A DNA stretch of 64,000 bases from Candidatus Woesearchaeota archaeon (GTDB lineage: Archaea; Nanobdellota; Nanobdellia; SCGC-AAA011-G17; JACPIM01), in assembly GCA_043817645.1 (NCBI GenBank), contig JBDRGP010000029.1:58226-122225 (forward strand). The letters are read 5' to 3'. The notes below the pieces were generated by a model. It had not been told where the DNA came from. It made no database searches and saw only the letters and a program-made list of their open reading frames with translations. Position 1 is the first letter of the stretch; every line of letters starts with the position of its first letter. Below, piece after piece: positions 6,692 through 63,977 of the stretch. The position numbers and the translations under genes are program-made.

Positions 6692-7660
6692 ATGATATGC
6701 CTATCTTTAGAAGGGACCGCCCATACGGCAGGGTGTGCAATAGTAACAAGTAAAGGAAATATCCTATCAGATATTAGGGATATGTACACTAAAGAAACAG
6801 GAGGAATAATCCCATCAGAAGCAGCACAGCATCATAAAAAAGTATTCCCCGGATTAATTAAAAAAGCAATAAAAGAAGCAAATATTAAAAAAATAGACTT
6901 AGTGGCTTATTCAAAATCACCAGGACTTCCACCATCACTAAAAGAAACCCTAAATGCAGCAAAAGATATAGCAAAAGATCTAAATGCACCATTAATCGGT
7001 GTAAATCATTGTATCTCTCACCTTTCATCTGCGCATTTCTTCACAAAAACAAAAAATCCCATATACGTTTTTGTTTCCGGCGCCAATACACAAATAATTT
7101 CTTTAGAGGGTGAAAGATTTAGGCTACTAGGAGAATGTATTGACATGGGTTTAGGAAACGCCTTAGATAAGTTTGGTAGATCTATAAACCTAGGTTTTCC
7201 AGCAGGCCTAAAAATAGAAGAATTGGCAAAAAAAGGAAAATACATAGAACTACCTTATACAATAAAAGGAATGGACTTATCTTTCTCAGGCATAATCACA
7301 TCAGCAATTGACAAATTTAAAAAAGGAGCTAAAAAAGAAGATCTCTGTTTTTCAATACAAGAAACATTATTTGCAATGCTAACAGAAGTTACAGAAAGAG
7401 CATTAGCGCATACAAGAAAAAATGAAGCGGTTATAATCGGAGGAGTGGCGGCAAATAAAAGACTTTCAGAAATGCTTTCAATAATGTGTAGAGAAAGAAA
7501 TGCTAAGTTTTATGCAGTTCCTTTAAAATATTCTGGAGATAATGCTGCGATGATCGCTATACAAGGAATCTTAGAATACAAAGCAGGAAACCGAACAAAA
7601 CATCCGGACATAGAACCATATCAAAGAATAGATGAAATAAAAGTTAGTTGGAAATACTAA
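6692..7660 (+). CDS. kae1: tRNA N6-adenosine threonylcarbamoyltransferase Kae1 (TsaD family), not fused to Bud32
   Basis: 322 aa. It starts MICLSLEGTAHTAGCAIV and includes NAPLIGVNHCISH; the fold is ASKHA, Kae1-type. Confidence 0.9.
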   Translation: MICLSLEGTAHTAGCAIVTSKGNILSDIRDMYTKETGGIIPSEAAQHHKKVFPGLIKKAIKEANIKKIDLVAYSKSPGLPPSLKETLNAAKDIAKDLNAPLIGVNHCISHLSSAHFFTKTKNPIYVFVSGANTQIISLEGERFRLLGECIDMGLGNALDKFGRSINLGFPAGLKIEELAKKGKYIELPYTIKGMDLSFSGIITSAIDKFKKGAKKEDLCFSIQETLFAMLTEVTERALAHTRKNEAVIIGGVAANKRLSEMLSIMCRERNAKFYAVPLKYSGDNAAMIAIQGILEYKAGNRTKHPDIEPYQRIDEIKVSWKY

Positions 7661-8268
7661 TAACTAGGACCAGTTTGTCCTTGATAAAAAGTTGTACTTC
7701 TTTCTACATCTCCAGGAGATGATTTCACAACCAGAATTTTATCAGAATAGACTCTATTATTTACGCAGTTATTAGTTGGTACACTGCTAGGACAAGCTGT
7801 TATCACATATAAAGCTGGCCTTCTGTCGTAAGGTACCCTAAAAGATGCTTTTCTGGGTGTATAACAATTAGAACCAGAATCACTCTCTCCAGGATTTAAC
7901 TCAAAACCAATTTTACATATATCTCCTATACTATCAACTTTAAGACCACTAATCGCATTCCTAAAGTCTACCTTATCATCCCATATACCATCCTTGTTAG
8001 GATAAATTTCAAAATGTACAACCTGGCCTTGCCTCACAACATATCTGCCGTTCTCATTCACAATATCAGGAGAATCAGGAGAAACAATTTCTATTCGAGT
8101 AGTTTCCTCTTCAGATCTTTCAGCAAAAAATCTCCCACTAGAATAACCACTACCGCTATAACCATAAGCAGTAGCACCAGTATACTGACTAATAAAAGAA
8201 AACACAACTAGCCCAACAACTAATACTAATAAAATTCCCACACCCCTTTTCATAGCATCATAGTCCAT
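7657..8268 (-). CDS. Secreted or membrane-anchored hypothetical protein
   Basis: 203 aa with an N-terminal TM/signal segment and a Gly/Ser/Tyr-rich linker. No recognisable family. Confidence 0.45.
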   Translation of the reverse strand: MDYDAMKRGVGILLVLVVGLVVFSFISQYTGATAYGYSGSGYSSGRFFAERSEEETTRIEIVSPDSPDIVNENGRYVVRQGQVVHFEIYPNKDGIWDDKVDFRNAISGLKVDSIGDICKIGFELNPGESDSGSNCYTPRKASFRVPYDRRPALYVITACPSSVPTNNCVNNRVYSDKILVVKSSPGDVERSTTFYQGQTGPSY

Positions 8269-12992: not shown

Positions 12993-13010
12993 TTACAGCT
13001 CACAAAAAAC
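12993..13010. repeat. 18-bp direct repeat TTACAGCTCACAAAAAAC, left copy (right copy at 15218-15235)
   Basis: The 18-mer is identical at both sites. The left copy is part of an 8-bp-stem hairpin (acagctca...tgagctgt). Confidence 0.6.
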
Positions 13011-13085
13011 TGAGCTGTAAACTTAGCGTCATCTGTTCTTATTAGATTTCGACAGATTTTTAAACTTCGGGTTCCTAATAATTTT

Positions 13086-13244
13086 ATGAAAGTTATGAAA
13101 GTGGTTGATAAAAAAGTGGGAAATACGACTTATTTCAAATATAGGATCAATCTACCGAAAGAGGCAGTTGAGAAACTAAATCTCCTCGATAAAAATCTAA
13201 AAGTGAAAGTTGAGAAAGGCAAGATTATAATAGAGAAGGAGTAG
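13086..13244 (+). CDS. AbrB/SpoVT (swapped-hairpin) family small DNA-binding protein, not in the ORF track
   Basis: The translation is MKVMKVVDKKVGNTTYFKYRINLPKEAVEKLNLLDKNLKVKVEKGKIIIEKE (52 aa). This resembles AbrB/MazE-type looped-hinge-helix domains. Confidence 0.45.
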   Translation: MKVMKVVDKKVGNTTYFKYRINLPKEAVEKLNLLDKNLKVKVEKGKIIIEKE

Positions 13245-13277
13245 CAATTCGGGTACCGATAAGTTTATATAGTTCGG

Positions 13278-14156
13278 GTGCCTAATTATAGCATGAAAGA
13301 TGCTATAAAATGTAAACATTGTTCAAGTTCGAACTTTTGCAAGAAAGGATTTAGAAAGACAGATTATCGAGGGAAAATTCAAAAATATTATTGTAAAAAC
13401 TGTAAGAGATTCTTTACAAATGATGAGGGGTTTTATAGAATGAGATTTAATCCTAAAACGATAACCATGTCTGTTGATATGTATTTATCAAATCTATCAT
13501 CAAGAAAGATGAGAAACCAATTAACAAGGCACTTCTCGATAAAAGCCAGTCACATGACTATACTAGACTGGGTTAGAAGATATAGCTTGAAAGTTCATAA
13601 GTTTGTTGAGAACTTAGGTTACAATCTTGGAAATCATTTTTATGCAGATGAAACGGAGATTAATAGATTAGGACACAGAGATAATTTCTGGGCTTGTGTT
13701 GATTGGGACACAAGAATGATAACAGGAATACATTACTCTGTTGCTACAAATATAAAAGAAGCAACAGTTTTCATACAGAAATCAGTTAGCAAAGGAAAAC
13801 CAAAATACATTCAAACAGATTCGGCTCAGTTTTACCCGAAAGCGTTCAAGAAATTATTTTATTCAAATAAAATTGGTGGCTTGGTAGTAGAGCATAAAAT
13901 ACAAAATGTTAGAAAAACTAAGATACATAACTATAAGATAGAAACCGTTTTCATGAAAATAAAAGATAGAGTCCATGATTTTAGGGGACTAAAGGCCTTA
14001 TGGTCTGCTCCAATAATCATGACTGGTTTAACAATACAGCATAATTTCATAGAACCTCATTGTAATAAACAAGAGTTTCCTTGTAACCTTGCTGGAGTTG
14101 ATTTAGGTTTAAAAGAAAACAGATGGTTGGATTTAATAAGGATGAGTTCACGATGA
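13278..14156 (+). CDS. IS6-family transposase (archaeal type with N-terminal zinc finger)
   Basis: 292 aa. The N-terminal CKHCSSSNFC...CKNCKRF is a Zn finger. The DDE region includes ADETEI, and length and organisation are typical of archaeal IS6. Confidence 0.7.
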   Translation: MPNYSMKDAIKCKHCSSSNFCKKGFRKTDYRGKIQKYYCKNCKRFFTNDEGFYRMRFNPKTITMSVDMYLSNLSSRKMRNQLTRHFSIKASHMTILDWVRRYSLKVHKFVENLGYNLGNHFYADETEINRLGHRDNFWACVDWDTRMITGIHYSVATNIKEATVFIQKSVSKGKPKYIQTDSAQFYPKAFKKLFYSNKIGGLVVEHKIQNVRKTKIHNYKIETVFMKIKDRVHDFRGLKALWSAPIIMTGLTIQHNFIEPHCNKQEFPCNLAGVDLGLKENRWLDLIRMSSR

Positions 14157-14170
14157 TAAACAGTTATTCA

Positions 14171-15103
14171 TTAAACTTTTCGCCACACATCCCTGTATAA
14201 TTTAGTGGGAGTTCCTTTGCCCTCCCAATCTCTGAATTGTTTCATCCACGCCTGGGATACGAATAGATCATCTAGAAATCCTATTGTCTGTTTAGGGCTC
14301 TTTACAAATTTACCTGCCAAAACTGCCCATGCCTTTGGATTAACCATAGATGTCCTTTTTCCATCATTAAGCCACGTCTCAGAAGTTATATGATAGTCTT
14401 CGGTTCCATCTTCTCTACTTTCAAGCTCAAAGTAACCTCTTGCACACTCCCCAAGTTGATTCGTAGTAGGATACCACCCTCCAAAATCTCTAGCTATTTG
14501 AGCGCAATGATAATCCAAGGTCCCTCTTTTAAAATTGCTTGGCCCCTTCACAATCTCCTTTGGATCAAAAGAGAATCCATCATTAAAGTGGACTATCGTG
14601 GTTGCAAATTTTCCTTTTGGCTTGAGAATCATGTGAACTAATTTAAACATTTCTTGATATATTTGATCTTGCTTACCTTCTACAGCATCTTGAACTTGTA
14701 CAAAGTGTTCAGCAGATCCATTAGCAATAACTCCATCAAAAGAATTAGCCCAAGAATCCGGCATATTTCTGTAATTCATTAACCTAACATCCAAACCATT
14801 CTTAACACACCTTCTAGCTTGTTTTTCTGATACGGTGATACCAACTGCAATGGTCCCCCGGTTCTCTGCGGTTTTTAAAACTCTTCCATATCCACATCCA
14901 ATATCCAGAATTCTAGCTCCGCTACCACAACCTATCTGATCAAGTAACCAATTAGCTTGGTTTTCTTGAGCTTTCTGGTATGATTGCTCAGGATCTCCGT
15001 TGTAAACCCCATCCGTAAAATCTGAAATCCCGCAAGAGGCAAATGCATCTAAGAAATCATAGCAACTCATAACTGCCTGAGAGGTATTTTCTATATCTTC
15101 CAT
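14171..15103 (-). CDS. SAM-dependent methyltransferase of the cyclopropane-fatty-acyl-phospholipid synthase / mycolic-acid cyclopropane synthase family
   Basis: 310 aa. The SAM motif ARILDIGCGYGRV is followed by TIAVGITVSEKQ and later SFDGVIANGSAEHF. The arrangement is collinear with CmaA/Cfa enzymes. Confidence 0.65.
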   Translation of the reverse strand: MEDIENTSQAVMSCYDFLDAFASCGISDFTDGVYNGDPEQSYQKAQENQANWLLDQIGCGSGARILDIGCGYGRVLKTAENRGTIAVGITVSEKQARRCVKNGLDVRLMNYRNMPDSWANSFDGVIANGSAEHFVQVQDAVEGKQDQIYQEMFKLVHMILKPKGKFATTIVHFNDGFSFDPKEIVKGPSNFKRGTLDYHCAQIARDFGGWYPTTNQLGECARGYFELESREDGTEDYHITSETWLNDGKRTSMVNPKAWAVLAGKFVKSPKQTIGFLDDLFVSQAWMKQFRDWEGKGTPTKLYRDVWRKV

Positions 15104-15217
15104 CTTAAAGATTGAATTTTATAAATACTTATAAACATTTATCTGATGGAATGATATAAAATTTTAACTAAGATATATCATCTAAAGATCATCTTACCAG
15201 TCTAGATGACGTTTACT

Positions 15218-15235
15218 TTACAGCTCACAAAAAAC
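15218..15235. repeat. 18-bp direct repeat TTACAGCTCACAAAAAAC, right copy
   Basis: It is identical to 12993-13010. An adjacent 7-bp inverted repeat tcatcta/tagatga lies at 15178-15209. Confidence 0.6.
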
Positions 15236-15283: not shown

Positions 15284-16471
15284 TTGATTGTTTTCATAAA
15301 TTCGTATTCTAGAGATTTTAATAGTTATAACTTTATTAAAAATCCCAAAAATAGTTTCCCCAAAAGTGGTCTAACCGTCAGAACGAAAACATTTAAATAT
15401 GCCAAAGTCTTTTATGAGTTTATGGAAAAAAGAGTGGTATTCCCAAAAGGGAAACAAAGGGAGTTTTTAGTCTCTTCAAGAAAAGAACTAAAACTAACCT
15501 GGCCGGAATTTGCTGAAAAAGTCGATACAAAAAGAAAAACTCTAGAAAAGGCCTATAGATATGAATATTGTTCGATGCCATATGGGGTTTTTTCTAAAAT
15601 AGTTAATGAAAGAAACATCAATAAAAAGAGACTTATTAGAGATTATAATATCAAAATAGTAAAAGGAAGTAGATATGGTGCAATTGGAAGGAAGGTGTTA
15701 GGAGAAAAAAGAGCGAAATTAGGCAATATCAACCTTTTATTTGAAAATTCTATACATCCATTTAACACTAGCGTTATAAAATTAAGCAAATATGATGAAA
15801 TTAAGAGAATAAAATTTCCAAATAAATTAACTCCAGAATTAGCTGAAGAAATCGGCATGCATATAGGAGACGGTTTTTTATCCAAAAGAAGGAACGAATA
15901 TCGTTTAAAGGGGAATAAAAATAACGAAAAAGATTACTACAAATACTTCATCAAAAAGCTTTACAAGACTTTGTTTAATTTAGATATTAATCTAAAAGAA
16001 TATGAATCGACATATGGATTTGAAATAAGCTCAAAAGGTCTCTGGACATTTAAAAATAAAATTTTGGGTATTCCATCAGGGAAAAAAGATGATATAGATT
16101 TGCCCGCAATTATAAAAGTGAATGACAAAGATATCCTAACTTCATTTATCCGAGGAGTTTTTGACACAGATGGTTGTGTTAACTTCAAAAGTGGATACGG
16201 TCTAAAGGGATATTACCCAAGAATAGAGATAACAATGCTCTCAAAAGATTTAATAGGGAGCATATCGGAGATATTATATGCATTGGGATTAAAACCATAT
16301 AAGCATCAAGATAAACTAGGATATTGGCATATTACTTTAAATGGCTATGAAAGATTTGAAAGATATAATAAATTAATAGGATGGCATAATCCCAAACACT
16401 TAAGAAAGATAAAAAAATGGAAAAAACAATATCCAAAATTAGGAAAGGATGTAATGGTAGGGGTAGTGTAG
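15284..16471 (+). CDS. Free-standing LAGLIDADG homing endonuclease (two LAGLIDADG motifs) with a ~180-aa N-terminal extension
   Basis: The motifs are IGMHIGDGFL and IRGVFDTDGCV. The last ~5 codons and the stop run into the 5' end of the tRNA-His gene. Confidence 0.7.
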   Translation: MIVFINSYSRDFNSYNFIKNPKNSFPKSGLTVRTKTFKYAKVFYEFMEKRVVFPKGKQREFLVSSRKELKLTWPEFAEKVDTKRKTLEKAYRYEYCSMPYGVFSKIVNERNINKKRLIRDYNIKIVKGSRYGAIGRKVLGEKRAKLGNINLLFENSIHPFNTSVIKLSKYDEIKRIKFPNKLTPELAEEIGMHIGDGFLSKRRNEYRLKGNKNNEKDYYKYFIKKLYKTLFNLDINLKEYESTYGFEISSKGLWTFKNKILGIPSGKKDDIDLPAIIKVNDKDILTSFIRGVFDTDGCVNFKSGYGLKGYYPRIEITMLSKDLIGSISEILYALGLKPYKHQDKLGYWHITLNGYERFERYNKLIGWHNPKHLRKIKKWKKQYPKLGKDVMVGVV

Positions 16472-16546
16472 CCTGGTTAGTTTTTACCCAGAAAACACGC
16501 AAGTCTGTGGAGCTTGAGATCGCGGGTTCAAGTCCCGCCCCTTACC
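16456..16546 (+). tRNA. tRNA-His (anticodon GTG, 16507-16509) with encoded G-1 and an apparent ~14-nt insertion in the D-loop
   Basis: Folded by hand. G-1 pairs with C73. The acceptor is gtagggg/cccttac, and the D-stem is gtgt(16466-69)/acac(16495-98). The anticodon arm is caagt-CTGTGGA-gcttg, and the T-arm is gcggg-TTCAAGT-cccgc. 25 nt lie between the D-stem halves, and the insert can form a gtttt/aaaac hairpin. Confidence 0.6.
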
Positions 16547-16568
16547 CGTTTTCAAAAAAGAGGTCAAA

Positions 16569-19128: not shown

Positions 19129-21288
19129 TCAAGGCAAAAGATCCATCCTGTAAGACCACAACCAAACCTCGCAATTTTCCACTTGATGGGCTCTAGAAGT
19201 TATACAAAGTCCTAAAACTTCTTGATTTTCATCAAACTCCGCATATAAACCATAAAAATCATCAAAAGTAGTACCCCATCTCCTATGTCCTCCCTCATAA
19301 TCATACATAACACTCTCGCCACATTCAACTGATTCAGGATATGCTCTAAGAAAATCCTCTAAGTTATCTCCTATACCAATTCTTCTATTCGTCTCACCTG
19401 TCCACCCCGGACCTACAAAGACATGTCCCAAATTGTTATAGGACCAAAGTAAATGAACACCACCATTAATACTTCTCATCTCTAAAGTATCTCCGTAACC
19501 TCCATCATGTCCTTCAAAAATATCAAAATCAGGACAATCATCAGCCAGGTGGTTTCTATCAGTAGTTCGAAGCCTTAAACCACCAAAACCAGCATAATTC
19601 ACTTCGAGAAAAATATTAGAATCCTGACTTAAACAATCGCTATAGCCGACCGGGGGTGGAGGAGTAAAACCAAAAATAAACATCTTTTTTTCTCCTGTAG
19701 AAGTATGCAAACCCCAATAAGGCTCAACAGGCGCCCAGTCTTTCCAAGGTTGATCAAATGCCTCAAAAAAGGAAAAGGCTATTCCAGCATGATTCTCATT
19801 GTATAATAACTCATAAAAAAATTCCAACTGCGTTAACTCACTAACTTCAGGATCACCACTAGTAGGCATTCCCGTTTCTTTAATCAAGATTTGTTTCTCA
19901 CCAGCAATGTTTTCCAATTGCCCATATACTTCAGCAACTCTAGCAGCCGCTTGTATAGGATCCTTTATATTCAACCAATAAGGATGGACATTTGGCAATA
20001 AAAATTCTCCAAACCCTACTAAATCCGGATTCTCAAAATAATCTTCAAATTGCTCTGTTGTTGAAACAGGCTTTTTAGTTCCGTTTCTTAAAGTTCTCCC
20101 AGCAGCAAGCAAATCTTCCAAAGTGTATCCACCATTTTGACCCAATAACTCATTTCCAATACAATAGCCATTAGAATATTCTCCCACATCGATAGCATCC
20201 TGTATCAAACCACCATTATTAGTAAACCAAACACCTGTAATCACACTCGCAAACCCAACTTCTTTTGCTATTCTTGGCACTTCTTTTAATGTACTCTCAA
20301 CATCATAAGTTATCAAACCAGTAAATCCTTCTTCTCTCAAAAGTTCTAAATCATCTCGTATACTCTCAACACTTGGAAATATTCCCTGCGTGGGATCAAA
20401 GTTTCTGGGAGCATAAGTTACCCACATACGACTACTTAGACTATTAGTTAAATTACGAACATTCCACTCATAACCCCAATCAAGCCTAACATCAAACGTT
20501 ATCTGCAAAGATTCACTAAGAGCAATCCCATCGCTTGCTTTAAAAGAAACCGTATCCATACCAACAAAATCAACATCAACTAATTGATATGTCAATTTAT
20601 TAGTATCAGTTATAACCGCAGTCCCATATTGCGGTTCATTAACAACCAAAAAAGTCAGGTCATCTCTATCTACATCACTCCCATACATATACACAGCCTT
20701 AGGATCTGTTCCACGAACAATGGCTTCTAAAGTATTGGCGCTAACAATAGGTGGATCATTCACATTTGCAACATTAATTGTAACCTTAGAACTGTTACTA
20801 TCAAATTCCCCGTCATTAGTCCTAAACCAGAAACCATCTTCCCCAAAAAAATCAATTTCAGGAGTATATGTCGCAACATTGCCATCCAATACAACCTCAC
20901 CATGGCTAGAACTACTAGTAACTCTAAAAGTCAAATCATCACCATCCTCATCAGTACCATTTAATACAATACCTAAAGGCGTTTCTTCCAGTACATTTAC
21001 ATTCATATCCCCAGTTTTAGGAGCATGATTAATATCCTCACCCTGCTGTGAATCTCCATCGCCAGAGCCCCCATCACCCACTGGAGGATCTGGAGTAGTA
21101 TTACCATCTCCTAAAAAAGGATCTTGAGGAGTTTCATCAATTATTGGATCATCTACTGGATATTCAGTCACAGGAGGCTCAGTAAGAGGAACAGCAGAAG
21201 GCGTAGGCGGTATACACCCCCATCCAGCAACTCCAACAACACCACCAATTAAATATTTTTTTAAAGACCTCATTTTCGCACCTCCCAA
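19129..21288 (-). CDS. Secreted protein: signal peptide, Thr/Pro/Asp-rich linker, two cadherin-like/VCBS-type repeats, and a GH17-like (beta-1,3-glucanase-like) TIM-barrel domain
   Basis: 719 aa. The repeats are NHAPKTGDMNVNVLEETP...TYTP and NDPPIVSANTLEAI...TYQL. The glycosidase motifs are CIGNELLG (acid/base region) and LIKETGMPTSGD, which matches the GH17 nucleophile motif TETGWPS. Confidence 0.55.
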   Translation of the reverse strand: MGGAKMRSLKKYLIGGVVGVAGWGCIPPTPSAVPLTEPPVTEYPVDDPIIDETPQDPFLGDGNTTPDPPVGDGGSGDGDSQQGEDINHAPKTGDMNVNVLEETPLGIVLNGTDEDGDDLTFRVTSSSSHGEVVLDGNVATYTPEIDFFGEDGFWFRTNDGEFDSNSSKVTINVANVNDPPIVSANTLEAIVRGTDPKAVYMYGSDVDRDDLTFLVVNEPQYGTAVITDTNKLTYQLVDVDFVGMDTVSFKASDGIALSESLQITFDVRLDWGYEWNVRNLTNSLSSRMWVTYAPRNFDPTQGIFPSVESIRDDLELLREEGFTGLITYDVESTLKEVPRIAKEVGFASVITGVWFTNNGGLIQDAIDVGEYSNGYCIGNELLGQNGGYTLEDLLAAGRTLRNGTKKPVSTTEQFEDYFENPDLVGFGEFLLPNVHPYWLNIKDPIQAAARVAEVYGQLENIAGEKQILIKETGMPTSGDPEVSELTQLEFFYELLYNENHAGIAFSFFEAFDQPWKDWAPVEPYWGLHTSTGEKKMFIFGFTPPPPVGYSDCLSQDSNIFLEVNYAGFGGLRLRTTDRNHLADDCPDFDIFEGHDGGYGDTLEMRSINGGVHLLWSYNNLGHVFVGPGWTGETNRRIGIGDNLEDFLRAYPESVECGESVMYDYEGGHRRWGTTFDDFYGLYAEFDENQEVLGLCITSRAHQVENCEVWLWSYRMDLLP

Positions 21289-21408: not shown

Positions 21409-22407
21409 ATGAAAAGAAAACTAATCAAACAGGGACATAATACAACAACAGTAACCTTACCAATAAATTGGGTCAAAAAATTAAATCTAAAAAGCGGTGA
21501 TGAAGTTGATGTTGAAGAACAGGGGAATTCATTAATAATAAATGGAAAAGAAAGCAATCAACATAAGAGCACAACCCTAGATATTTCTGATTTTACTGTA
21601 CCTATGATTTGGAGATTTTTCCAACCAGCGTATAGACAAGGTTATGATGAAATAAAAGTAGCATTCAATCCTGATAAAAAAAATTTTGAAAGTGTTTATC
21701 ATTATTACACAACACAATTTGCCTATACAAAACTTGGAGAAAAACGTCCTGCAAAACCAGCCGTAGATATGATCCAAGAACTTATAGATAGGTTCATAGG
21801 AATAGAAATAATGGATATAGGAAAAAATTATTGCATAATAAAAGATATGACTGAACCAACCACAAAAGAATACCCAAATTCACTAAGAAGAATATTTATG
21901 ATCATTTCAAACATATTTGATAGAGTAATAACAGCAATAGAAAACAATGAAATAGGTGATATAAAAATCTGTAAAGAGCTTCATACAATGGACCTAAATG
22001 CTGATAGATTTATAGACTATTGCTGCAGGATACTAAACAAAATAAATGACTCCGCACCTCAAAGAAAAAAAGCTTCTATATTCGCTAGTTTATTTATTCT
22101 TGAGTTACTTTCTGACGAATTTAAATATATAGGTGTTCACTTAGCCAAAGCAAATAAAAAAGTAAGCGATATTCTACCTTTTGGAGAAAAAGTTAGGGAA
22201 CATTTCAAACTTTATGAAAACCTATTTTATAATTTTGACAGAGACTTAGCCATAAAATTCGGAAAAAATGATTTCTCTATTTATGATGAACACTCTAGTT
22301 GGAAGAAAAAGATAGCAGGAGAAAATAAAAGTATAGCCGGACATTTAATGCAAATTAGCAAATATTTACTCTGCTTAGTAGAACTCAGAATAGAAATGGA
22401 ATCATAG
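21409..22407 (+). CDS. PhoU-family regulator with an N-terminal AbrB/SpoVT DNA-binding domain
   Basis: 332 aa. The N-terminus KRKLIKQGHNTTTVTLPINWVKKLNLKSGDEVDVEEQGNSLIING is an AbrB swapped-hairpin. The helical remainder is consistent with the archaeal PhoU-like architecture. Confidence 0.5.
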   Translation: MKRKLIKQGHNTTTVTLPINWVKKLNLKSGDEVDVEEQGNSLIINGKESNQHKSTTLDISDFTVPMIWRFFQPAYRQGYDEIKVAFNPDKKNFESVYHYYTTQFAYTKLGEKRPAKPAVDMIQELIDRFIGIEIMDIGKNYCIIKDMTEPTTKEYPNSLRRIFMIISNIFDRVITAIENNEIGDIKICKELHTMDLNADRFIDYCCRILNKINDSAPQRKKASIFASLFILELLSDEFKYIGVHLAKANKKVSDILPFGEKVREHFKLYENLFYNFDRDLAIKFGKNDFSIYDEHSSWKKKIAGENKSIAGHLMQISKYLLCLVELRIEMES

Positions 22408-58500: not shown

Positions 58501-60066
58501 TCACGTTGGAGGATCTTCATAAACAACACGATAAAGAATAACAGAAAACAGCTTAGCAGTAATGATAGGTTTATCACTAATTCTTCCATATACAACCAAA
58601 GAAACACAAATATTCACTAAAACCCACAAATTATACAAACACACTGAAAATAAGAAATAAAACAACCTTATCAAGTAATTCTTACTAGTAGTTCTGGCCT
58701 TAAAATCATGATCTAATTGCCTATATCCAGTTTCAATACCCCATCTTTTAGAATACCAATAATAAAGATAATGAGCTAATTGTTCTGGAACATGAAAATT
58801 AGTGATAAAGGCTCTTTGAATACCTTCCTCATCATCTACTAGAATTAGATTAACTTTGGCTTTCTCCTTCTTACCAAACTCAAAATCTTTAATTATTCTA
58901 GCTCTACAATCCAAACTTTTATCCATCCAAGCCTTAACTCTATCACTCCTTACTTTAGGCATTACAAACTTAATTCTATTGGCCTTAAGAACATTAATCA
59001 CCTTTGGCTTATCAAAACCCCTATCTAAATAAGCCTTATCAATATTTATTTTATCTTTAACTCTTTTAATTATTTTATCAACTAAGTCCTCTAAATTATC
59101 CAATTTATGCATTAATATGGCATCAATCGTAAACCTTCTTCCAGCAACCACAATAGCACATGTAATAAATTGATGAAAATGTGTTGTACCTCTATCTAAT
59201 TTCCCTTCAATTACATAATCATCGTTCTTATCACCATAATAAGGAATATTATGAATGTCTATAGCTATATCTAACTGTCTTCTTCTTAATCCTCTATAAT
59301 TTCTCTTAGCAAAGTTAAAAATAGTGTTAAATACATTATCAAACATCTCTTGTATTATTGTTTTATTACTAAATTTATTAAAGTGATATAACATAGTCCA
59401 GCCACTAGGACATTTCGATTCTGAATTTAATTCTTTAAAAGTTTCAGTACCATTATGGGCAAAATCATGTGTTTGTGCAACATGTACCAAGACATCTAAC
59501 AAATCTTTAGTAGTAAACTTACCATTATTTTTAATCTTAATATCAATTTGCGGATAAATTAATTTCTTTACTAATTTTATAGTTTCTTTTTTTATTTTTC
59601 TTTGTTCTTTAATCTCTTTATTTTTTTGATTAACTGCATTTTTTACTAATTCTAAATCTAAAATAACTCCTTTTTTAGTTGCAGTTTTAAGAATTAATTT
59701 TACTATATTATTTAATTCAAAAAATAAATCTTCATCAACTTTATTCTGGAAAAATCTATTATACCAACTTTTAGCAGGTAAAACTAATTTATTACTCTCT
59801 TTATGAAATCCTAAATGTAACGCTTCTTCCTCCGTTATTTGATCTAATGCTTTATGAAAGAACCTTATTGCTTTGATTTTCTTCCAAAGATAGAATTTCA
59901 GTAAAGATTCAGGAGAGAATTTAGATTGTCTTTGATTGATTACATTGGTAGTATTAGAGAGATCTAACTTGGATAAAATAAAAGAAACCTTAATACAACT
60001 TGTAGTATCAAGGCTTTCAAAAATTTTATTAAGTTCAGATTCCAAATAGCCAATAGAGTTTTTCAT
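58501..60066 (-). CDS. DDE transposase (IS4/ISH3-like family)
   Basis: 521 aa. It has DRGFDKPKV..., a typical DDE-IS4 C-terminal region. Confidence 0.6.
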   Translation of the reverse strand: MKNSIGYLESELNKIFESLDTTSCIKVSFILSKLDLSNTTNVINQRQSKFSPESLLKFYLWKKIKAIRFFHKALDQITEEEALHLGFHKESNKLVLPAKSWYNRFFQNKVDEDLFFELNNIVKLILKTATKKGVILDLELVKNAVNQKNKEIKEQRKIKKETIKLVKKLIYPQIDIKIKNNGKFTTKDLLDVLVHVAQTHDFAHNGTETFKELNSESKCPSGWTMLYHFNKFSNKTIIQEMFDNVFNTIFNFAKRNYRGLRRRQLDIAIDIHNIPYYGDKNDDYVIEGKLDRGTTHFHQFITCAIVVAGRRFTIDAILMHKLDNLEDLVDKIIKRVKDKINIDKAYLDRGFDKPKVINVLKANRIKFVMPKVRSDRVKAWMDKSLDCRARIIKDFEFGKKEKAKVNLILVDDEEGIQRAFITNFHVPEQLAHYLYYWYSKRWGIETGYRQLDHDFKARTTSKNYLIRLFYFLFSVCLYNLWVLVNICVSLVVYGRISDKPIITAKLFSVILYRVVYEDPPT

Positions 60067-60605: not shown

Positions 60606-63600
60606 TTGATAAAAAAGAATATTCTTTTGCCGATATTCATTTTATTAATAATTATAAGTTTCTCTGCTATTGTTATCTCTCAAAAAACTTCTCTTCAAAA
60701 AGCAAATTCTATAAAGAACATAGATGATTCTGATATGCTTTATAAGTTTACACATTTAAAAGGATATAAATCTATCAGTTTTGATATCTCCTCTTCTAAG
60801 GACTTTAATATTAATAAAGTTGAAAAAATTGATACTTTTTCTGATAAAAAAGTTGGGAATATATTTAAATTGAATAATTTAGCTGTAGAAACGGAGTATA
60901 AAGAGGTAGACACAAGTTTTTTTAATACAGATACAAGACCTGTAAAGCAGACTTATATCATAAAAAATTTATTAGATAAATCTAGAGATATAAAGTTAAA
61001 TATAAAATACGAAATTGACTCTTCTACTATAACATGGAATGGTACAGAATATGAAATCACTGAAACTCCTAAACATTTTGAGGCCTTTTATGTTGAAGAT
61101 GAATTTTTTCCCGATAATGAACTTTCTCCTGAAATTGCTATTAAATCTTTAACAGGGCATACTTTATATTTTGGTAATAATTATTATGATTTTAAAGATG
61201 TAGTTGATTTGGATTATAAAGTTTTAATATATTCTAAAGAAAATAAAAATTATATTGGTTTAGAAATAAAATCCGATATTGATTCTTTAGAAGAATTTGT
61301 GATAGATCCTGAAATTGGGTGGACAACCAGGATTGTAGATAATTCAGCAAAGGGAGCAAGGGATGTGTTTGCAATAGATATGGATAATGATAATGACATA
61401 GATGTAGTTGGCGCATCTTTTGCAGGATTGGTTAATAAGATTGCCTGGTATGAAAATGATGGAAACTCTCCTCCAAGTTGGACCACTAGAAACATAAGTA
61501 CAATCATTGTTTGGAGTGAACCACGTTCAGTCTATGCAATAGACATAGATAATGATAATGACATTGATGTGTTGACTGCATCTTCTCAAGACAATAGGGT
61601 TGCCTGGTATGAAAATGATGGGGGTTCTCCTCCAAGTTGGACTACAAGAAACATAACTACTTCTGTTGATGCAGCACAGGATGTTTTTGCAATAGACATA
61701 GATAACGATAATGACATTGATGTGTTGAGTGCATCTTATTATGATAATAAGATAGCATGGTATGAGAATGATGGATCTACACCACCATCCTGGACCACTA
61801 GAAACATAACTACTTCAGCAAATGGAGCTCGCTCTGTTTTTGCAATAGATATGGATAATGACAATGATATAGATGTGTTAAGCGCTTCGGGAAGTAAGGT
61901 CGCTTGGTATGAGAATGATGGAAGTACTCCTCCTAGTTGGACTGCTAGAACTATAACTACTTCAGCAAATGCACCAAGGCGTGTGTTTGCAATAGATATG
62001 GATAATGATAATGACATAGATGTGTTAAGCGCTAATTATGATAAGATAGCTTGGTATGAGAATGATGGAAGTACTCCTCCCAGTTGGACTGCTAGAACTA
62101 TAACAACTTCAGTAGGTGCAGCAAGGGATGTGTTTGCAATAGACATAGATAATGATAAGGATATAGATGTGTTGAGTGCATCTTCTCATGATGATAAGAT
62201 AGCATGGTATGAGAATGATGGAAGTACTCCTCCCAGTTGGACTACTAGAATTATAACAACTTCAGCAGATGCAGCATATTCAGTCTATGCTATAGATATA
62301 GATAATGATGGAGATGTGGACGCTTTAAGTGCATCTACTACAGATGGTAAGATTGCTTGGTATGAAAGTCGTTTAGACCCTTCTTCTATTTATAAGTATT
62401 TGTGGGTCCCATTTGGAAATTGGAACTCTCAACAGGAATTTGAAAATGATGCTAAAAAAAGAGCAGACTTTTTCCTAGAAATTTCTCCTTTACAATCCTG
62501 TAAAAGTAAAGCACAGAATATTTATATTGATATTGACTGGGTAGAAGTTAATTGCCCCTATGTGACATCAGACATTCCTGAAAAAAAATTATTACAATTT
62601 ACAGAAAAGTGCGCAAAGGCTTATATATTAGACACTGGTATAGGACCTTATGAAAAAGCAATAAGCTTTTCTAAAGATGATTTTTGTGATAGTTGTGCTG
62701 GAAAGGCTACTCTAGGTGGAAAATATGCTTATGCTGAAACTGAGTGGAGTGGGGTTGAGCATCTAGAAATCGCCGCACACGAATTAGGGCATACTTATTT
62801 TGTATGTGATGAATATAAATATCTTGGAACTTCAGGATGGTCTAATGAGAATAATGAGTTGTTATTAAAGCACGGGTTTGGTTGCCCGAATCCTTGGACT
62901 GATACATATGATGAGTATAATGAAACACACTCTAACCATCCATGTTTAGAGGATGATAGTGGAAGATGTATTCGCGAGGGAAAATGTTGTGGTGCCTTTA
63001 ATGACCCAATTAGCCATTACGATGGAATTTATTCTGCTGCTGGCAATGATTGTACTGATGAGACTACCTATAATGTTGTTGGGTGGGGTGGCACAGAGAG
63101 AAGATGTGGATATAGTACCGATTCTTACAACAAATTAGCAGAATTTTTAACTTGTTCAGATAATCTACGATCCAACGGAAATGGAAATATCACAAATGTT
63201 TCATATTTAGGTTTGCTATTTAATATAACTAATCCAACACAGGAAAATGTCACTTTGGGTGACAGCTTTGTTCATAGAGGATTGTTGCCTAAGAAATTAG
63301 GCGTCAATGATAGTCTTTATGAACTAAAGATCACTAATGCCAATAATCAAACTATAGATTCAGATCCATTACCAGTATTCTACTTTGAACTAGTGCAATA
63401 TGACAATGCAACTATAAATGTAAGCGATGATAAAAATGAAAGTTTTATTGTTAGTGAGTTAGAATACACATCAAATTGGGAAATGTTGCAGGTTTATAAA
63501 AACGATTCTTTAATTTATGAAGTCAATATTTCTCATTTATTATGCAATGAAAATGATATTTGTGATGAAAAAGAGAACTTCTTTAGCTGTCCACAAGATT

Positions 63601-63977
63601 GTAGTTCTGGAAGTAGCGACAATATATGCGATGGACAAGATGATGGAATATGCGATCCAGATTGTTATTATAGTGCAGATGCTAATTGTGCATTAGATTT
63701 AACTAATCTTACAATAGTATCGCAAAATGGGACAGAATTCATTTTTAGATTCGTTATTAATAACTTTTGGAATAATACTATCTCAAATATAAGTTGGATA
63801 TTAGATCCAGAGATTAATGATATTATGTCAGAATTAACTCTTAATCTTGAGACTAATGAAACAGCTTTTGTCTATGTGGAATATGATTATACTAACACAG
63901 GCAATTATACTGTATTAGCAGCTGTTGAAACTAGTGAATTATCTGATACTGAAACAGTTTCTGTGGAGGTCATATGA
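60606..63977 (+). CDS. Giant secreted protein: N-terminal signal, 8 tandem FG-GAP/VCBS-like beta-propeller repeats, HExxH zincin-like domain (HELGHT...DEY), Cys-rich C-terminal domains
   Basis: 1123 aa. The repeat unit V(F/Y)AID(I/M)DNDNDIDVLSAS..DKIAWYENDGSTPPSWTxRxITTS occurs 8 times with Ca-binding DxDxDxD loops. HELGH is at 62778-62792. Confidence 0.65.
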   Translation: MIKKNILLPIFILLIIISFSAIVISQKTSLQKANSIKNIDDSDMLYKFTHLKGYKSISFDISSSKDFNINKVEKIDTFSDKKVGNIFKLNNLAVETEYKEVDTSFFNTDTRPVKQTYIIKNLLDKSRDIKLNIKYEIDSSTITWNGTEYEITETPKHFEAFYVEDEFFPDNELSPEIAIKSLTGHTLYFGNNYYDFKDVVDLDYKVLIYSKENKNYIGLEIKSDIDSLEEFVIDPEIGWTTRIVDNSAKGARDVFAIDMDNDNDIDVVGASFAGLVNKIAWYENDGNSPPSWTTRNISTIIVWSEPRSVYAIDIDNDNDIDVLTASSQDNRVAWYENDGGSPPSWTTRNITTSVDAAQDVFAIDIDNDNDIDVLSASYYDNKIAWYENDGSTPPSWTTRNITTSANGARSVFAIDMDNDNDIDVLSASGSKVAWYENDGSTPPSWTARTITTSANAPRRVFAIDMDNDNDIDVLSANYDKIAWYENDGSTPPSWTARTITTSVGAARDVFAIDIDNDKDIDVLSASSHDDKIAWYENDGSTPPSWTTRIITTSADAAYSVYAIDIDNDGDVDALSASTTDGKIAWYESRLDPSSIYKYLWVPFGNWNSQQEFENDAKKRADFFLEISPLQSCKSKAQNIYIDIDWVEVNCPYVTSDIPEKKLLQFTEKCAKAYILDTGIGPYEKAISFSKDDFCDSCAGKATLGGKYAYAETEWSGVEHLEIAAHELGHTYFVCDEYKYLGTSGWSNENNELLLKHGFGCPNPWTDTYDEYNETHSNHPCLEDDSGRCIREGKCCGAFNDPISHYDGIYSAAGNDCTDETTYNVVGWGGTERRCGYSTDSYNKLAEFLTCSDNLRSNGNGNITNVSYLGLLFNITNPTQENVTLGDSFVHRGLLPKKLGVNDSLYELKITNANNQTIDSDPLPVFYFELVQYDNATINVSDDKNESFIVSELEYTSNWEMLQVYKNDSLIYEVNISHLLCNENDICDEKENFFSCPQDCSSGSSDNICDGQDDGICDPDCYYSADANCALDLTNLTIVSQNGTEFIFRFVINNFWNNTISNISWILDPEINDIMSELTLNLETNETAFVYVEYDYTNTGNYTVLAAVETSELSDTETVSVEVI
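61340..62345 (+). repeat. Eight ~120-bp tandem coding repeats (beta-propeller blades) inside the 60606..63977 gene
   Basis: The strings gatggaagtactcctcccagttggac and gcaatagatatggataatgataatgacatagatgtg recur at ~120-bp period. Confidence 0.7.

Follow-up and report, generated by a model that had tools for sequence, protein, structure and literature searches.

A CMAS-fold methyltransferase as cargo of an IS6-like insertion sequence of DPANN archaea

The window analyzed here, a stretch of archaeal DNA of 64,000 nt, contains an IS6-like element with 3 genes, one of which encodes a SAM-dependent methyltransferase. The element and its parts are as follows:

13011-15227: whole element, IS6-like, 2,217 bp, three genes
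12993..13002, + strand: TTACAGCTCA, copy of the final 10 nt of the right inverted repeat, directly left of the left target duplication
13003..13010, no strand: left 8-bp target-site duplication CAAAAAAC (octamer repeated at 15228-15235)
13011..13047, + strand: left terminal inverted repeat (IRL) TGAGCTGTAAACTTAGCGTCATCT..., from the repeat search
13086..13244, + strand: AbrB/MazE-like ORF of 52 aa, called as a gene in contigs L001-L004 and conserved upstream of the transposase in sibling elements
13293..14156, + strand: IS6-like DDE transposase bearing an N-terminal zinc finger; 287 aa when read from the ATG at 13293, 292 aa from a GTG at 13278
14171..15103, - strand: CMAS-fold SAM-dependent methyltransferase, passenger gene of the element, 310 aa from ATG to stop, identified by motifs, Pfam, and fold
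15119..15134, - strand: two A/T-rich TATA-like boxes, TTTATAAG and TTTATAAA, read from the sequence, 16-31 nt upstream of the methyltransferase ATG
15191..15227, - strand: right terminal inverted repeat (IRR), from the repeat search
15228..15235, no strand: right 8-bp target-site duplication CAAAAAAC

The IRL is 37 nt long and 76% complementary to the IRR, the first 11 nt being perfect, and the number of IRL/IRR matches expected by chance is 0. The 10-nt copy TTACAGCTCA outside the element forms a perfect hairpin with the start of the IRL and possibly represents a solo end or a target preference. The transposase matches the Pfam family DDE_Tnp_IS240 (47.8 bits, cut-off 27), and its best NCBIfam match is transpos_IS6 (91 bits, under the cut-off of 125). 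It has at least 708 homologues, of which the named ones are from Pacearchaeota, Nanoarchaeota, or "archaeon," and the element lineage is IS6-like and DPANN-specific. The 52-aa protein, a presumed regulator of transposition, has no Pfam match of its own; it is 90%, 56%, and 31% identical to the ORFs in L148, L153, and L152, respectively, and the L152 counterpart matches Pfam MazE_antitoxin.

Four public contigs are 100% identical to the element, with the identity ending exactly at one or both of its boundaries: it stops at 13011 precisely in the four contigs and at 15227 in L003 and L004, the latter consisting of exactly the 2,217 bp. A second insertion of the element is flanked by TTATTTTA, with the left flank found in L001/L002 and the right flank in L003; its empty site was not found in the window, which holds neither of its flanks, B and C. 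The presence of identical copies at 2 or more sites shows recent activity of the element, with which the methyltransferase gene moves. The initial annotation described this gene as associated with an insertion sequence, and a transposase ORF does adjoin it, but the gene lies, with high confidence, within the element as cargo rather than beside it. The cargo slot extends from the transposase stop codon to the right end, and the methyltransferase gene resides there with an A/T-rich upstream region of its own, in which the TATA-like boxes could, judging from their sequence, constitute a putative archaeal promoter of a leaderless or near-leaderless mRNA.

Three sibling elements have the termini and the 52-aa ORF in common with this element, encode a transposase 72-92% identical to its own, and carry different cargo in the same slot:

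2,805 bp: TrmB and a UbiE-like methyltransferase; target-site duplication GTATTAGC
3,257 bp: MazE and unknown ORFs; target-site duplication GTATAAGG
3,625 bp: type II restriction-modification system; target-site duplication CTTTTTAG

Nucleotide homology to L148 is confined to element positions 1-1130 and 2193-2217, and the cargo segment is therefore unrelated.

The ORF at 14171..15103 is a real gene and not a chance ORF. Its translation contains the three motifs quoted in the initial annotation (LDIGCGYG, VGITVSEKQ, and NGSAEHF), in that order, as ARILDIGCGYGRV, IAVGITVSEKQARR, and VIANGSAEHFVQ. Residues 33-244 match positions 34-229 of the 273-position Pfam profile CMAS (PF02353) with 59.8 bits against a cut-off of 27, and the same family was recognized in 120 of 120 homologues among the matches listed; the protein database search returned 332 homologues at E ≤ 1e-3. 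An identical protein is deposited at NCBI as [quoted passage not shown] and this label, together with a NAC-domain protein encoded in the window, agrees with the archaeal provenance claimed earlier. The predicted structure (pLDDT 94) combines a class I Rossmann SAM fold with the CMAS helical cap, and the nearest solved structures, those of MmaA2, CmaA1, PcaA, E. coli CFAS, and UmaA, belong to the same family. The best 8 Foldseek matches are all lipid cyclopropane or mycolate enzymes, with generic RNA methyltransferases only far down the structural lists. Likewise, the best matches in the profile comparison with PDB sequences are cyclopropane and mycolic-acid synthases (1e-15 to 1e-13), and phospho-base and sarcosine methyltransferases went undetected at E ≤ 1e-3. 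Alignment with CmaA1/PcaA is collinear for almost the entire fold, profile positions 15-257 pairing with residues 10-246. The proposed membership in the CMAS/Cfa superfamily is thus upheld, and placement in a different SAM-methyltransferase family was not found.

The suggested kinship with Cfa and CmaA holds at the level of superfamily and collinearity but does not extend to orthology, which we rejected: every NCBIfam Cfa or mycolic-methyltransferase model scored 7-10 times under its cut-off (PRK11705, 56 bits against 400; CfaB, 38 against 650; CPFASynBruc, 30 against 600; mycolic_MTase, 41 against 390). Membership in a defense system was also rejected, the sole PADLOC match being an uninformative 48-bit hit to the generic SAM-binding region of mad2. 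The protein very probably represents a distinct subfamily with the CMAS fold. This small, tightly conserved subfamily is uncharacterised. The enzyme retains the CMAS fold in full, and its SAM-binding site is intact both in motif I (LDIGCGYG) and in the acidic residue that follows strand 2. Members of the subfamily come from DPANN archaea, CPR/Patescibacteria, Planctomycetota, and Verrucomicrobiota, share 45-55% identity across these host groups, and display 39 invariant columns in an alignment of 42 sequences. Our literature search turned up no characterised member, and no report of a cfa-like gene in either DPANN or CPR. The remoter relatives retrieved from 1.84 billion proteins, which score 130-200 bits and have 380-425 aa, are likewise unnamed CMAS-like proteins and therefore offer no functional anchor. 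A profile search of contigs based on the full-length alignment was dominated by hits to the generic LDIGCG pattern and returned only 2 true members, one from Minisyncoccia and one from Lacipirellula, and IMG/VR contained no family members and no matches to the inverted repeats of the element.

In E. coli Cfa, the side-chain ligands of bicarbonate are Glu239, His266, and Tyr317, whereas Cys139, which is strictly conserved in non-plant CPS, makes its contact through the backbone, the C139S variant retaining 31% efficiency (PMC3132707). Glu132 (in ANGSAEHF) and Tyr237 (in EDYHITSETW), both invariant in the 42 members, align with Glu239 and Tyr317. The position of His266 (His167 in CmaA1) is occupied by the invariant Thr169 in ungapped alignments (PcaA; MAFFT), and the HMMER alignment with CmaA1 brings the invariant His172 to the His167 position only via a 3-residue gap. 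The His266 equivalent is therefore ambiguous and probably Thr, and only 2 of the 3 side-chain ligands (Glu and Tyr) are clearly kept. The Y-S-C-A-Y-F/W loop is absent and replaced by the invariant, acidic D28-F-T30-D31/E-G32-x-Y34, written DFTDG(K)Y or DFTDGVY; Tyr33, Ser34, and Cys35 of CmaA1 correspond to Thr30, Asp31, and Gly32, with Gly32 invariant at the Cys139 position in the 42-member alignment. Given the backbone contact and the residual efficiency of C139S, loss of the cysteine alone does not rule out cyclopropane chemistry. The FPGGxLP-type motif is kept, and the invariant polar residues outside the SAM site are D28, N128, S130, T168, T169, H172, D236, E242, Q289, and R304.

Taken together, we tentatively explain the locus as a cargo element carrying a CMAS-subfamily enzyme that was acquired from an archaeal donor and methylates a C=C double bond in lipids. 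The lipid double bond is only our leading guess for the substrate, a polar small molecule being almost as likely. The SAM methyl group would be transferred to an electron-rich C=C of a membrane lipid, located in an unsaturated acyl chain obtained from the host or in an unsaturated isoprenoid chain. Glu132/His133 and Tyr237, which are conserved, would hold a base that deprotonates the resulting carbocation. Bicarbonate may play this part, as it does in Cfa, or the family-specific Asp28/Asp31 may serve instead, and the product would be a cyclopropane, a methylene, or a methyl branch. Such an enzyme would act on finished lipids and would therefore count among the few ways of tailoring lipids that could benefit symbionts unable to make them.

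The gene neighborhoods were surveyed for 87 family loci, 76 of them non-redundant, with 303 neighbors clustered and the 101 immediate ones scanned against Pfam. No partner conserved family-wide was found among the 101 immediate neighbors of the 76 non-redundant loci; the commonest is a GCS2/YbdK ligase (5 times), followed by rpL7Ae (3 times), the others being singletons. Two neighbors hint at lipids. In an Opitutaceae genome, the family gene begins 3 bp past a cardiolipin synthase gene on the same strand, the latter being bona fide (TIGR04265, 310.7 bits against a cut-off of 290), and in L007 the family gene is adjoined by a fatty-acid desaturase gene. In Pseudomonas putida, cfaB and cls may be linked, but our argument does not draw on this. 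Against a lipid substrate, no recurrent lipid genes were found, tblastn with the cardiolipin synthase and the desaturase retrieving only these proteins themselves, each once in about 0.5 Mb of flanks, and the L007 desaturase has host GC, whereas the L007 methyltransferase lies in a foreign low-GC island. Three features of the active site also count against it: the invariant, acidic D-F-T-D/E-G-x-Y replaces the YSCAYF loop that lines the active site of Cfa/CmaA, the His266/His167 position is most likely Thr169, and many of the invariant residues outside the SAM site are polar. Finally, the 45-55% identity spans organisms with acyl-ester and isoprenoid-ether lipids, which argues for a substrate common to both.

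The same fold could possibly perform other chemistry, namely, N-, O-, S-, or C-methylation of a polar soluble metabolite (an amine, thiol, or phospho-base) common to archaea and bacteria, an alternative to which we assign a substantial though minor share of the probability. The role would possibly be detoxification, with Glu132/His133 acting as an acid-base pair as in the plant N-methyltransferases of the Pfam CMAS family. The comparisons speak for the lipid enzymes, however, both at the level of sequence profiles, where phospho-base and sarcosine methyltransferases were not detected among PDB entries at E ≤ 1e-3, and in the top 8 Foldseek matches; in addition, the Glu and Tyr of the bicarbonate site are retained, as is the FPGGxLP-type motif, and there is the one operon-like link to cardiolipin synthase.

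It is very unlikely that the gene is a classical cyclopropane-fatty-acyl-phospholipid synthase received by recent direct transfer of a bacterial cfa/cmaA. The initial annotation had argued for bacterial acquisition from the association with an insertion sequence and the higher GC content; the latter is real (39.7% against 33.5% in the window), most family members are bacterial, and the archaeal clade groups with CPR. However, the GC excess resides in codon positions 1 and 2 (GC1 0.489, GC2 0.395), whereas GC3 is 0.305 (window mean 0.252, sd 0.036) and the synonymous-codon distance of 0.206 is under the window mean of 0.308. The codon usage is thus native-like, an outcome that the annotation had itself named as speaking against its proposal, although broad vertical conservation in archaea, named alongside, was not found. 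Among the closest homologues (64-68% identity) are chromosomal genes that lie beside rpL7Ae and rpS28e on archaeal contigs, but the best named bacterial match is only 53% identical, and the transposase lineage is DPANN-specific. Both "recent" and "classical" are largely refuted by the codon usage, the nearest relatives, and the NCBIfam equivalog scores (38-56 bits for Cfa, CfaB, and mycolic methyltransferase, against cut-offs of 390-650), and Cys139 is replaced by Gly with the YSCAYF motif gone. Native-like codons and chromosomal archaeal nearest homologues therefore point to an archaeal immediate donor, and the gene would have come from another DPANN archaeon and been captured into the insertion sequence. 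In neighbor-joining trees, the window protein clusters with the proteins of archaeal contigs carrying the gene next to rpL7Ae-rpS28e in 200 of 200 bootstraps, and the archaeal clade with the window protein joins CPR sequences, with the PVC sequences left outside, in 191 of 200. CPR-like bacteria are the probable source from which DPANN acquired the whole family, bacterial origin being only a deeper inference.

A function in translation, with rRNA, tRNA, or a ribosomal protein as the substrate, appears highly improbable. In related archaea the methyltransferase gene is directly upstream of rpL7Ae-rpS28e-rpL24e-ndk, a position that would indicate co-expression, and the order methyltransferase-rpL7Ae-rpS28e on one strand recurs in 3 independent archaeal contigs (L005, L006, and L091). 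A macromolecular substrate would also be common to archaea and bacteria, and generic RNA methyltransferases do appear, far down the structural lists. Yet we know of no RNA or protein methyltransferase with the CMAS cap architecture, the bacterial homologues have no link to translation genes, and the copy within the insertion sequence has an upstream region to itself, with no ribosomal protein neighbors. It is scarcely credible that the CMAS-fold protein is catalytically dead, has been repurposed (for example, as a SAM-binding cyclase of the SpnF kind), or is a passenger in decay without host function: the SAM motif I and the acidic residue after strand 2 are intact, 39 columns are invariant across archaea and 3 bacterial phyla, and all copies are full length, which indicates that a defined activity is under strong purifying selection.

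DPANN archaea and CPR bacteria are unable to make their own membrane lipids, and the methyltransferase, if its substrate is indeed a lipid double bond, would bear on the question of how scavenged membranes are adapted. It would then be a self-contained, post-synthetic lipid-modifying enzyme common to exactly DPANN and CPR and mobile in one of them. We consider it unlikely, albeit worth stating, that the DPANN-specific IS6-like "transporter" IS is a gene shuttle with an exchangeable slot whose CPR-to-DPANN methyltransferase cargo remodels host-stolen lipids, cyclopropanating or methyl-branching their unsaturated acyl or isoprenoid chains by a bicarbonate-independent, Asp-based mechanism. On this reading, lipid-auxotrophic episymbionts would have their first lipid-tailoring enzyme, and archaeal lipids their first modification of the CMAS type. 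If the substrate is a soluble metabolite, the finding would be of modest interest, its value lying in the annotation of an uncharacterised CMAS subfamily on a mobile element. Whatever the substrate, IS6-type insertion sequences in archaea can hold internal, exchangeable cargo, here ranging over methyltransferases, a regulator, an antitoxin, and a restriction-modification system. IS6 members have so far been known almost only as 0.8-kb single-gene elements, with genes moved by 2 copies as pseudo-compound transposons; a cargo-carrying IS is a route by which accessory genes spread in very small genomes.

Compared with known CMAS enzymes, the methyltransferase lacks the N-terminal lipid/dimerisation domain of about 100 aa present in E. 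coli Cfa (6bqc) and other bacterial CFAS (5z9o and 7qos): with 310 aa in total, its alignment with E. coli Cfa begins at about residue 120 of the latter. The mycobacterial enzymes likewise lack this domain. Further differences from E. coli Cfa are the change of YSCAYW to DFTDGVY (C139 to Gly), the probable Thr at the H266 position, an extra helix, and a conserved SQxWxxQFR...PTxLxRxxW C-terminus. Identity to the M. tuberculosis enzymes MmaA2 (1tpy), CmaA1 (1kpg), PcaA (1l1e), UmaA (7l9u), and Hma (2fk8) is only 18-22%, and mycolic acids are absent from the hosts considered here. Profile similarity is weaker (6e-12 to 3e-4) to other small-molecule enzymes that are in Pfam CMAS or resemble it, namely, the plant benzylisoquinoline N-methyltransferases TNMT (6p3m), PavNMT, and CNMT, together with TleD (a prenyl C-methyltransferase), MitM, SpnF, and the GPP/FPP C-methyltransferases; all of these act on lineage-specific secondary metabolites, whereas the present subfamily is conserved across domains.

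An 8-bp target duplication is a hallmark of IS6, and ISDsp3, whose passenger is a hypothetical gene, is the sole passenger-carrying member (tIS) of this family in ISfinder (PMC7986276). The element resembles IS6 (IS26, IS257, and the archaeal clades) in its DDE_Tnp_IS240 transposase, short terminal inverted repeats, and target duplications of 8 bp, seen in all the insertions examined (2 of the element and 3 of its siblings). It differs in size, the element and siblings measuring 2.2-3.6 kb instead of about 0.8 kb (typically 0.7-0.9 kb, with the transposase only), and in the additional conserved AbrB/MazE-like gene of 52 aa. Its inverted repeats are longer and imperfect and start with TGAGCTGTAAA (TGAGC...), whereas the ends of IS26 start with GG. 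The 2.2-kb length, these termini, and the NCBIfam IS6 score under the cut-off count against filing the element as IS6. The cargo lies within a single IS and not between 2 directly repeated copies, and with 2,217 bp and 3 genes the element is therefore a cargo-carrying "tIS" variant.

The CMAS-like methyltransferase (MTase) travels as a passenger in an active IS6-like transporter insertion sequence (IS) that is specific to DPANN and 2,217 bp long; its ends and passenger are as follows:

13011-13047, left terminal inverted repeat (IRL), 37 nt, from repeat search
14171-15103, minus strand, CMAS-like MTase ORF, an unbroken frame of 310 codons
15191-15227, right terminal inverted repeat (IRR), 37 nt, from repeat search

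The 24-nt core of the inverted repeats has no other occurrence in the window, where none is expected by chance. The exact MTase protein is present on other public contigs, whose match to the window is 100% at the nucleotide level and breaks off precisely at 13011, at 15227, or at both; a contig from JGI consists of just the 2,217 bp of the element, the signature of a collapsed repeat. The window copy is bordered on both sides by CAAAAAAC, an 8-bp target-site duplication (TSD), and 8-bp duplications are a hallmark of IS6 (PMC7986276). A second insertion of the element is reconstructed from three contigs with identical copies, TTATTTTA ending the left flank of L001 and L002 and beginning the right flank of L003. 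The plus-strand ORF adjoining the MTase encodes a DDE_Tnp_IS240/IS6-like transposase with at least 708 relatives, every named one of which comes from Pacearchaeota, Nanoarchaeota, or an "archaeon." The IS association proposed in the initial annotation thus stands, with the amendment that the MTase lies inside the element and not beside it.

Two irregularities accompany these insertions. L001 (GCA_018812805.1, JAHJCX010000020.1) couples the left-hand flank of the second insertion (TSD TTATTTTA) with the right-hand flank of the window insertion (LAGLIDADG gene), either because the assembly is chimeric across the 2.2-kb repeat or because two copies have recombined. Just outside the left TSD, positions 12993-13002 (TTACAGCTCA) are the same as the final 10 nt of IRR and form with IRL a perfect hairpin, ACAGCTCA-CAAAAAAC-TGAGCTGT; this copy could be a solo-end remnant or reflect target preference.

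All 3 sibling elements inspected share with the window element the termini (TGAGCTGTAAA...), an 8-bp duplication, and a 52-aa AbrB/MazE-like ORF, and the cargo differs in all four elements.

Cargo of the window element and its siblings (coordinates on the respective contigs)
Window element, 13011-15227: CMAS-like MTase
L148, 138-2942, 2,805 bp: TrmB-like regulator and UbiE-like MTase
L152, 2854-6110, 3,257 bp: MazE antitoxin and unknown ORFs
L153, 1772-5396, 3,625 bp: type II R-M, N6/N4 DNA methylase and MvaI/BcnI endonuclease

Homology to the closest sibling is confined to element positions 1-1130 (86%) and the final 25 nt, so the cargo slot lies between the stop codon of the transposase and IRR. 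The window element has nothing in this slot but the MTase ORF and 87 nt of upstream DNA, within which TATA-like boxes 16-31 nt upstream of the ATG would fit an archaeal leaderless transcript. The MazE/AbrB fold class of the 52-aa ORF recurs as a domain at the N terminus of a 332-aa window protein (21409-22407).

The surrounding DNA is archaeal, as initially assumed, because a NAC-domain protein is encoded amid ordinary housekeeping genes. Other features of the window include a free-standing LAGLIDADG_3 ORF (15284-16547, 395 aa), which overlaps by 15 nt the start of a 91-nt tRNA-Gly(CCC) gene, long enough for an intron; a further transposase, unrelated to that of the IS (DDE_Tnp_1, 521 aa, 58501-60066), in the most AT-rich part (26-28% GC, 59-61 kb); and large secreted-looking proteins with cadherin-like/Big_9 and FG-GAP repeats (19129-21288 and 60606-63977), candidates for adhesion at the cell surface of an episymbiont.

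The MTase gene is indeed GC-richer than the window (39.7% versus 33.5%), but the excess sits in codon positions 1 and 2. Its GC3 (0.305; window mean 0.252, sd 0.036) and its synonymous-codon distance (0.206, under the window mean of 0.308) are native-like, and nothing in the composition therefore points to a recent arrival from a bacterium of higher GC. Among the nearest homologues (64-68% identity) are genes on archaeal contigs that keep a conserved place immediately upstream of rpL7Ae-rpS28e(-rpL24e-ndk) and have no transposase close by, whereas the best named bacterial relatives among the matches listed are CPR/Patescibacteria (50-55%), followed by Pirellulales and Opitutaceae (~45%). In a neighbor-joining tree, unreliably rooted on E. 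coli Cfa with its very long branch, the window protein forms one clade with the rpL7Ae-linked archaeal genes (200/200 bootstraps), and this clade groups with CPR sequences to the exclusion of Planctomycetota/Verrucomicrobiota-side (PVC) sequences (191/200). The bacterial acquisition suggested initially is thus not borne out as a recent event, and we infer that the most recent source was another archaeon. The gene also moves the other way: on a 3.8-Mb bacterial contig of 54-60% GC (L007, ENA ERZ28763718 ctg125353, 6800-8000), one gene of the "archaeal" clade, whose product shares 65% identity with the window protein, forms a 37-39% GC island between two DDE_Tnp_1_4 transposase genes and was apparently acquired from that low-GC (archaeal) clade. 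It adjoins a fatty-acid desaturase gene of host-like GC. In our reading, the family arose in bacteria, and CPR-like bacteria and DPANN archaea probably exchanged it; one DPANN lineage would then have kept it as a resident gene, from which the IS captured it.

The MTase contains ILDIGCGYG, VGITVSEKQ, and ANGSAEHF in the order first reported and passes the Pfam CMAS model (59.8 bits, cut-off 27; profile positions 34-229 of 273). As to the kind of METHYLTRANSFERASE, the best PDB sequence match of the 42-member family profile is E. coli CFAS (1e-15), and profile positions 15-257 align to residues 10-246 of the 287-aa enzymes PcaA and CmaA1, so that the proposed collinearity with Cfa/CmaA is correct. 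The initial annotation is thus confirmed in what it observed and supported in part in how it read it. The MTase is a divergent CMAS superfamily member and not a Cfa/CmaA orthologue. Candidate orthologies tried with NCBIfam models and rejected were Cfa (56 bits, cut-off 400), CfaB (38, 650), Brucella CFAS (30, 600), and mycolic MTase (41, 390). An identical NCBI entry, from a Nanoarchaeota MAG, is named "class I SAM-dependent methyltransferase." The subfamily is small (176 cluster representatives at E<=1e-30 among 1.84 billion), and among the matches listed no member or near relative bears a curated name.

The bicarbonate site of E. coli Cfa (C139, E239, H266, I268, and Y317) defines the catalytic residues; two of its contacts run via backbone amides, and C139S retains 31% efficiency (PMC3132707). 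E132 and Y237 of the MTase, both invariant in the family, line up with E239 and Y317. The C139 position is an invariant Gly32, the Cfa/CmaA loop YSCAYF being replaced by D28-F-T30-D31-G32-x-Y34, and the H266 position is an invariant Thr169 in ungapped alignments and an invariant His172 only with a gap opened. Speculatively, the invariant Asp28/Asp31 might take the place of bicarbonate as base.

The enzyme may methylate or cyclopropanate lipid C=C bonds, a reading we favor tentatively, at somewhat below an even chance. Its nearest sequence and structure relatives are lipid olefin methyltransferases; it keeps both the Glu/Tyr pair and the GG-P motif and, like Cfa, is stand-alone. Post-synthetic modification is lipid chemistry within reach of lipid-auxotrophic DPANN and CPR cells, and the CMAS-like GPP/FPP C-MTs and TleD provide precedents for methylation of isoprenoid double bonds. 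In an Opitutaceae MAG (GCA_041395105.1, L065, 4631-6978), the family gene begins 3 bp past a bona fide cardiolipin synthase gene (TIGR04265, above cut-off) on the same strand, the sole operon-like tie to lipid metabolism found for this family; a PEMT-family gene lies 5 kb downstream. However, the active-site loop is both acidic and polar, the residue at the His position is uncertain, lipid neighbor genes do not recur among 76 family loci, and a single tightly conserved enzyme across ester-acyl and ether-isoprenoid membranes is awkward. A polar small-molecule acceptor, which we regard as a doubtful but serious candidate, is hinted at by GCS2, glutathione-synthetase, and peroxiredoxin neighbors in a PVC clade. 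At six loci (L103, L120, L121, L123, L144, and L146) of one high-GC clade, probably Planctomycetota, the MTase adjoins a YbdK/GCS2 carboxylate-amine ligase, the arrangement taking either of two orientations. A translation-linked macromolecule as substrate is very improbable, and the remaining likelihood falls to an inactive protein or other roles.

The analysis adds an IS6 lineage that carries cargo and an uncharacterised subfamily of CMAS proteins. Three motifs (HYD, G-x-x-EHF, and FPGGxLP-type) are kept as CYD, ANGSAEHF, and FGGWYP, and the C-terminal signature SQxWxxQFR...PTxLxRxxW is specific to the window MTase family. IS6 elements are typically ~800 bp, with a single passenger-carrying member listed in a review (PMC7986276), whereas the lineage described here spans 2,217-3,625 bp with internal cargo and is thus an unusual variant.
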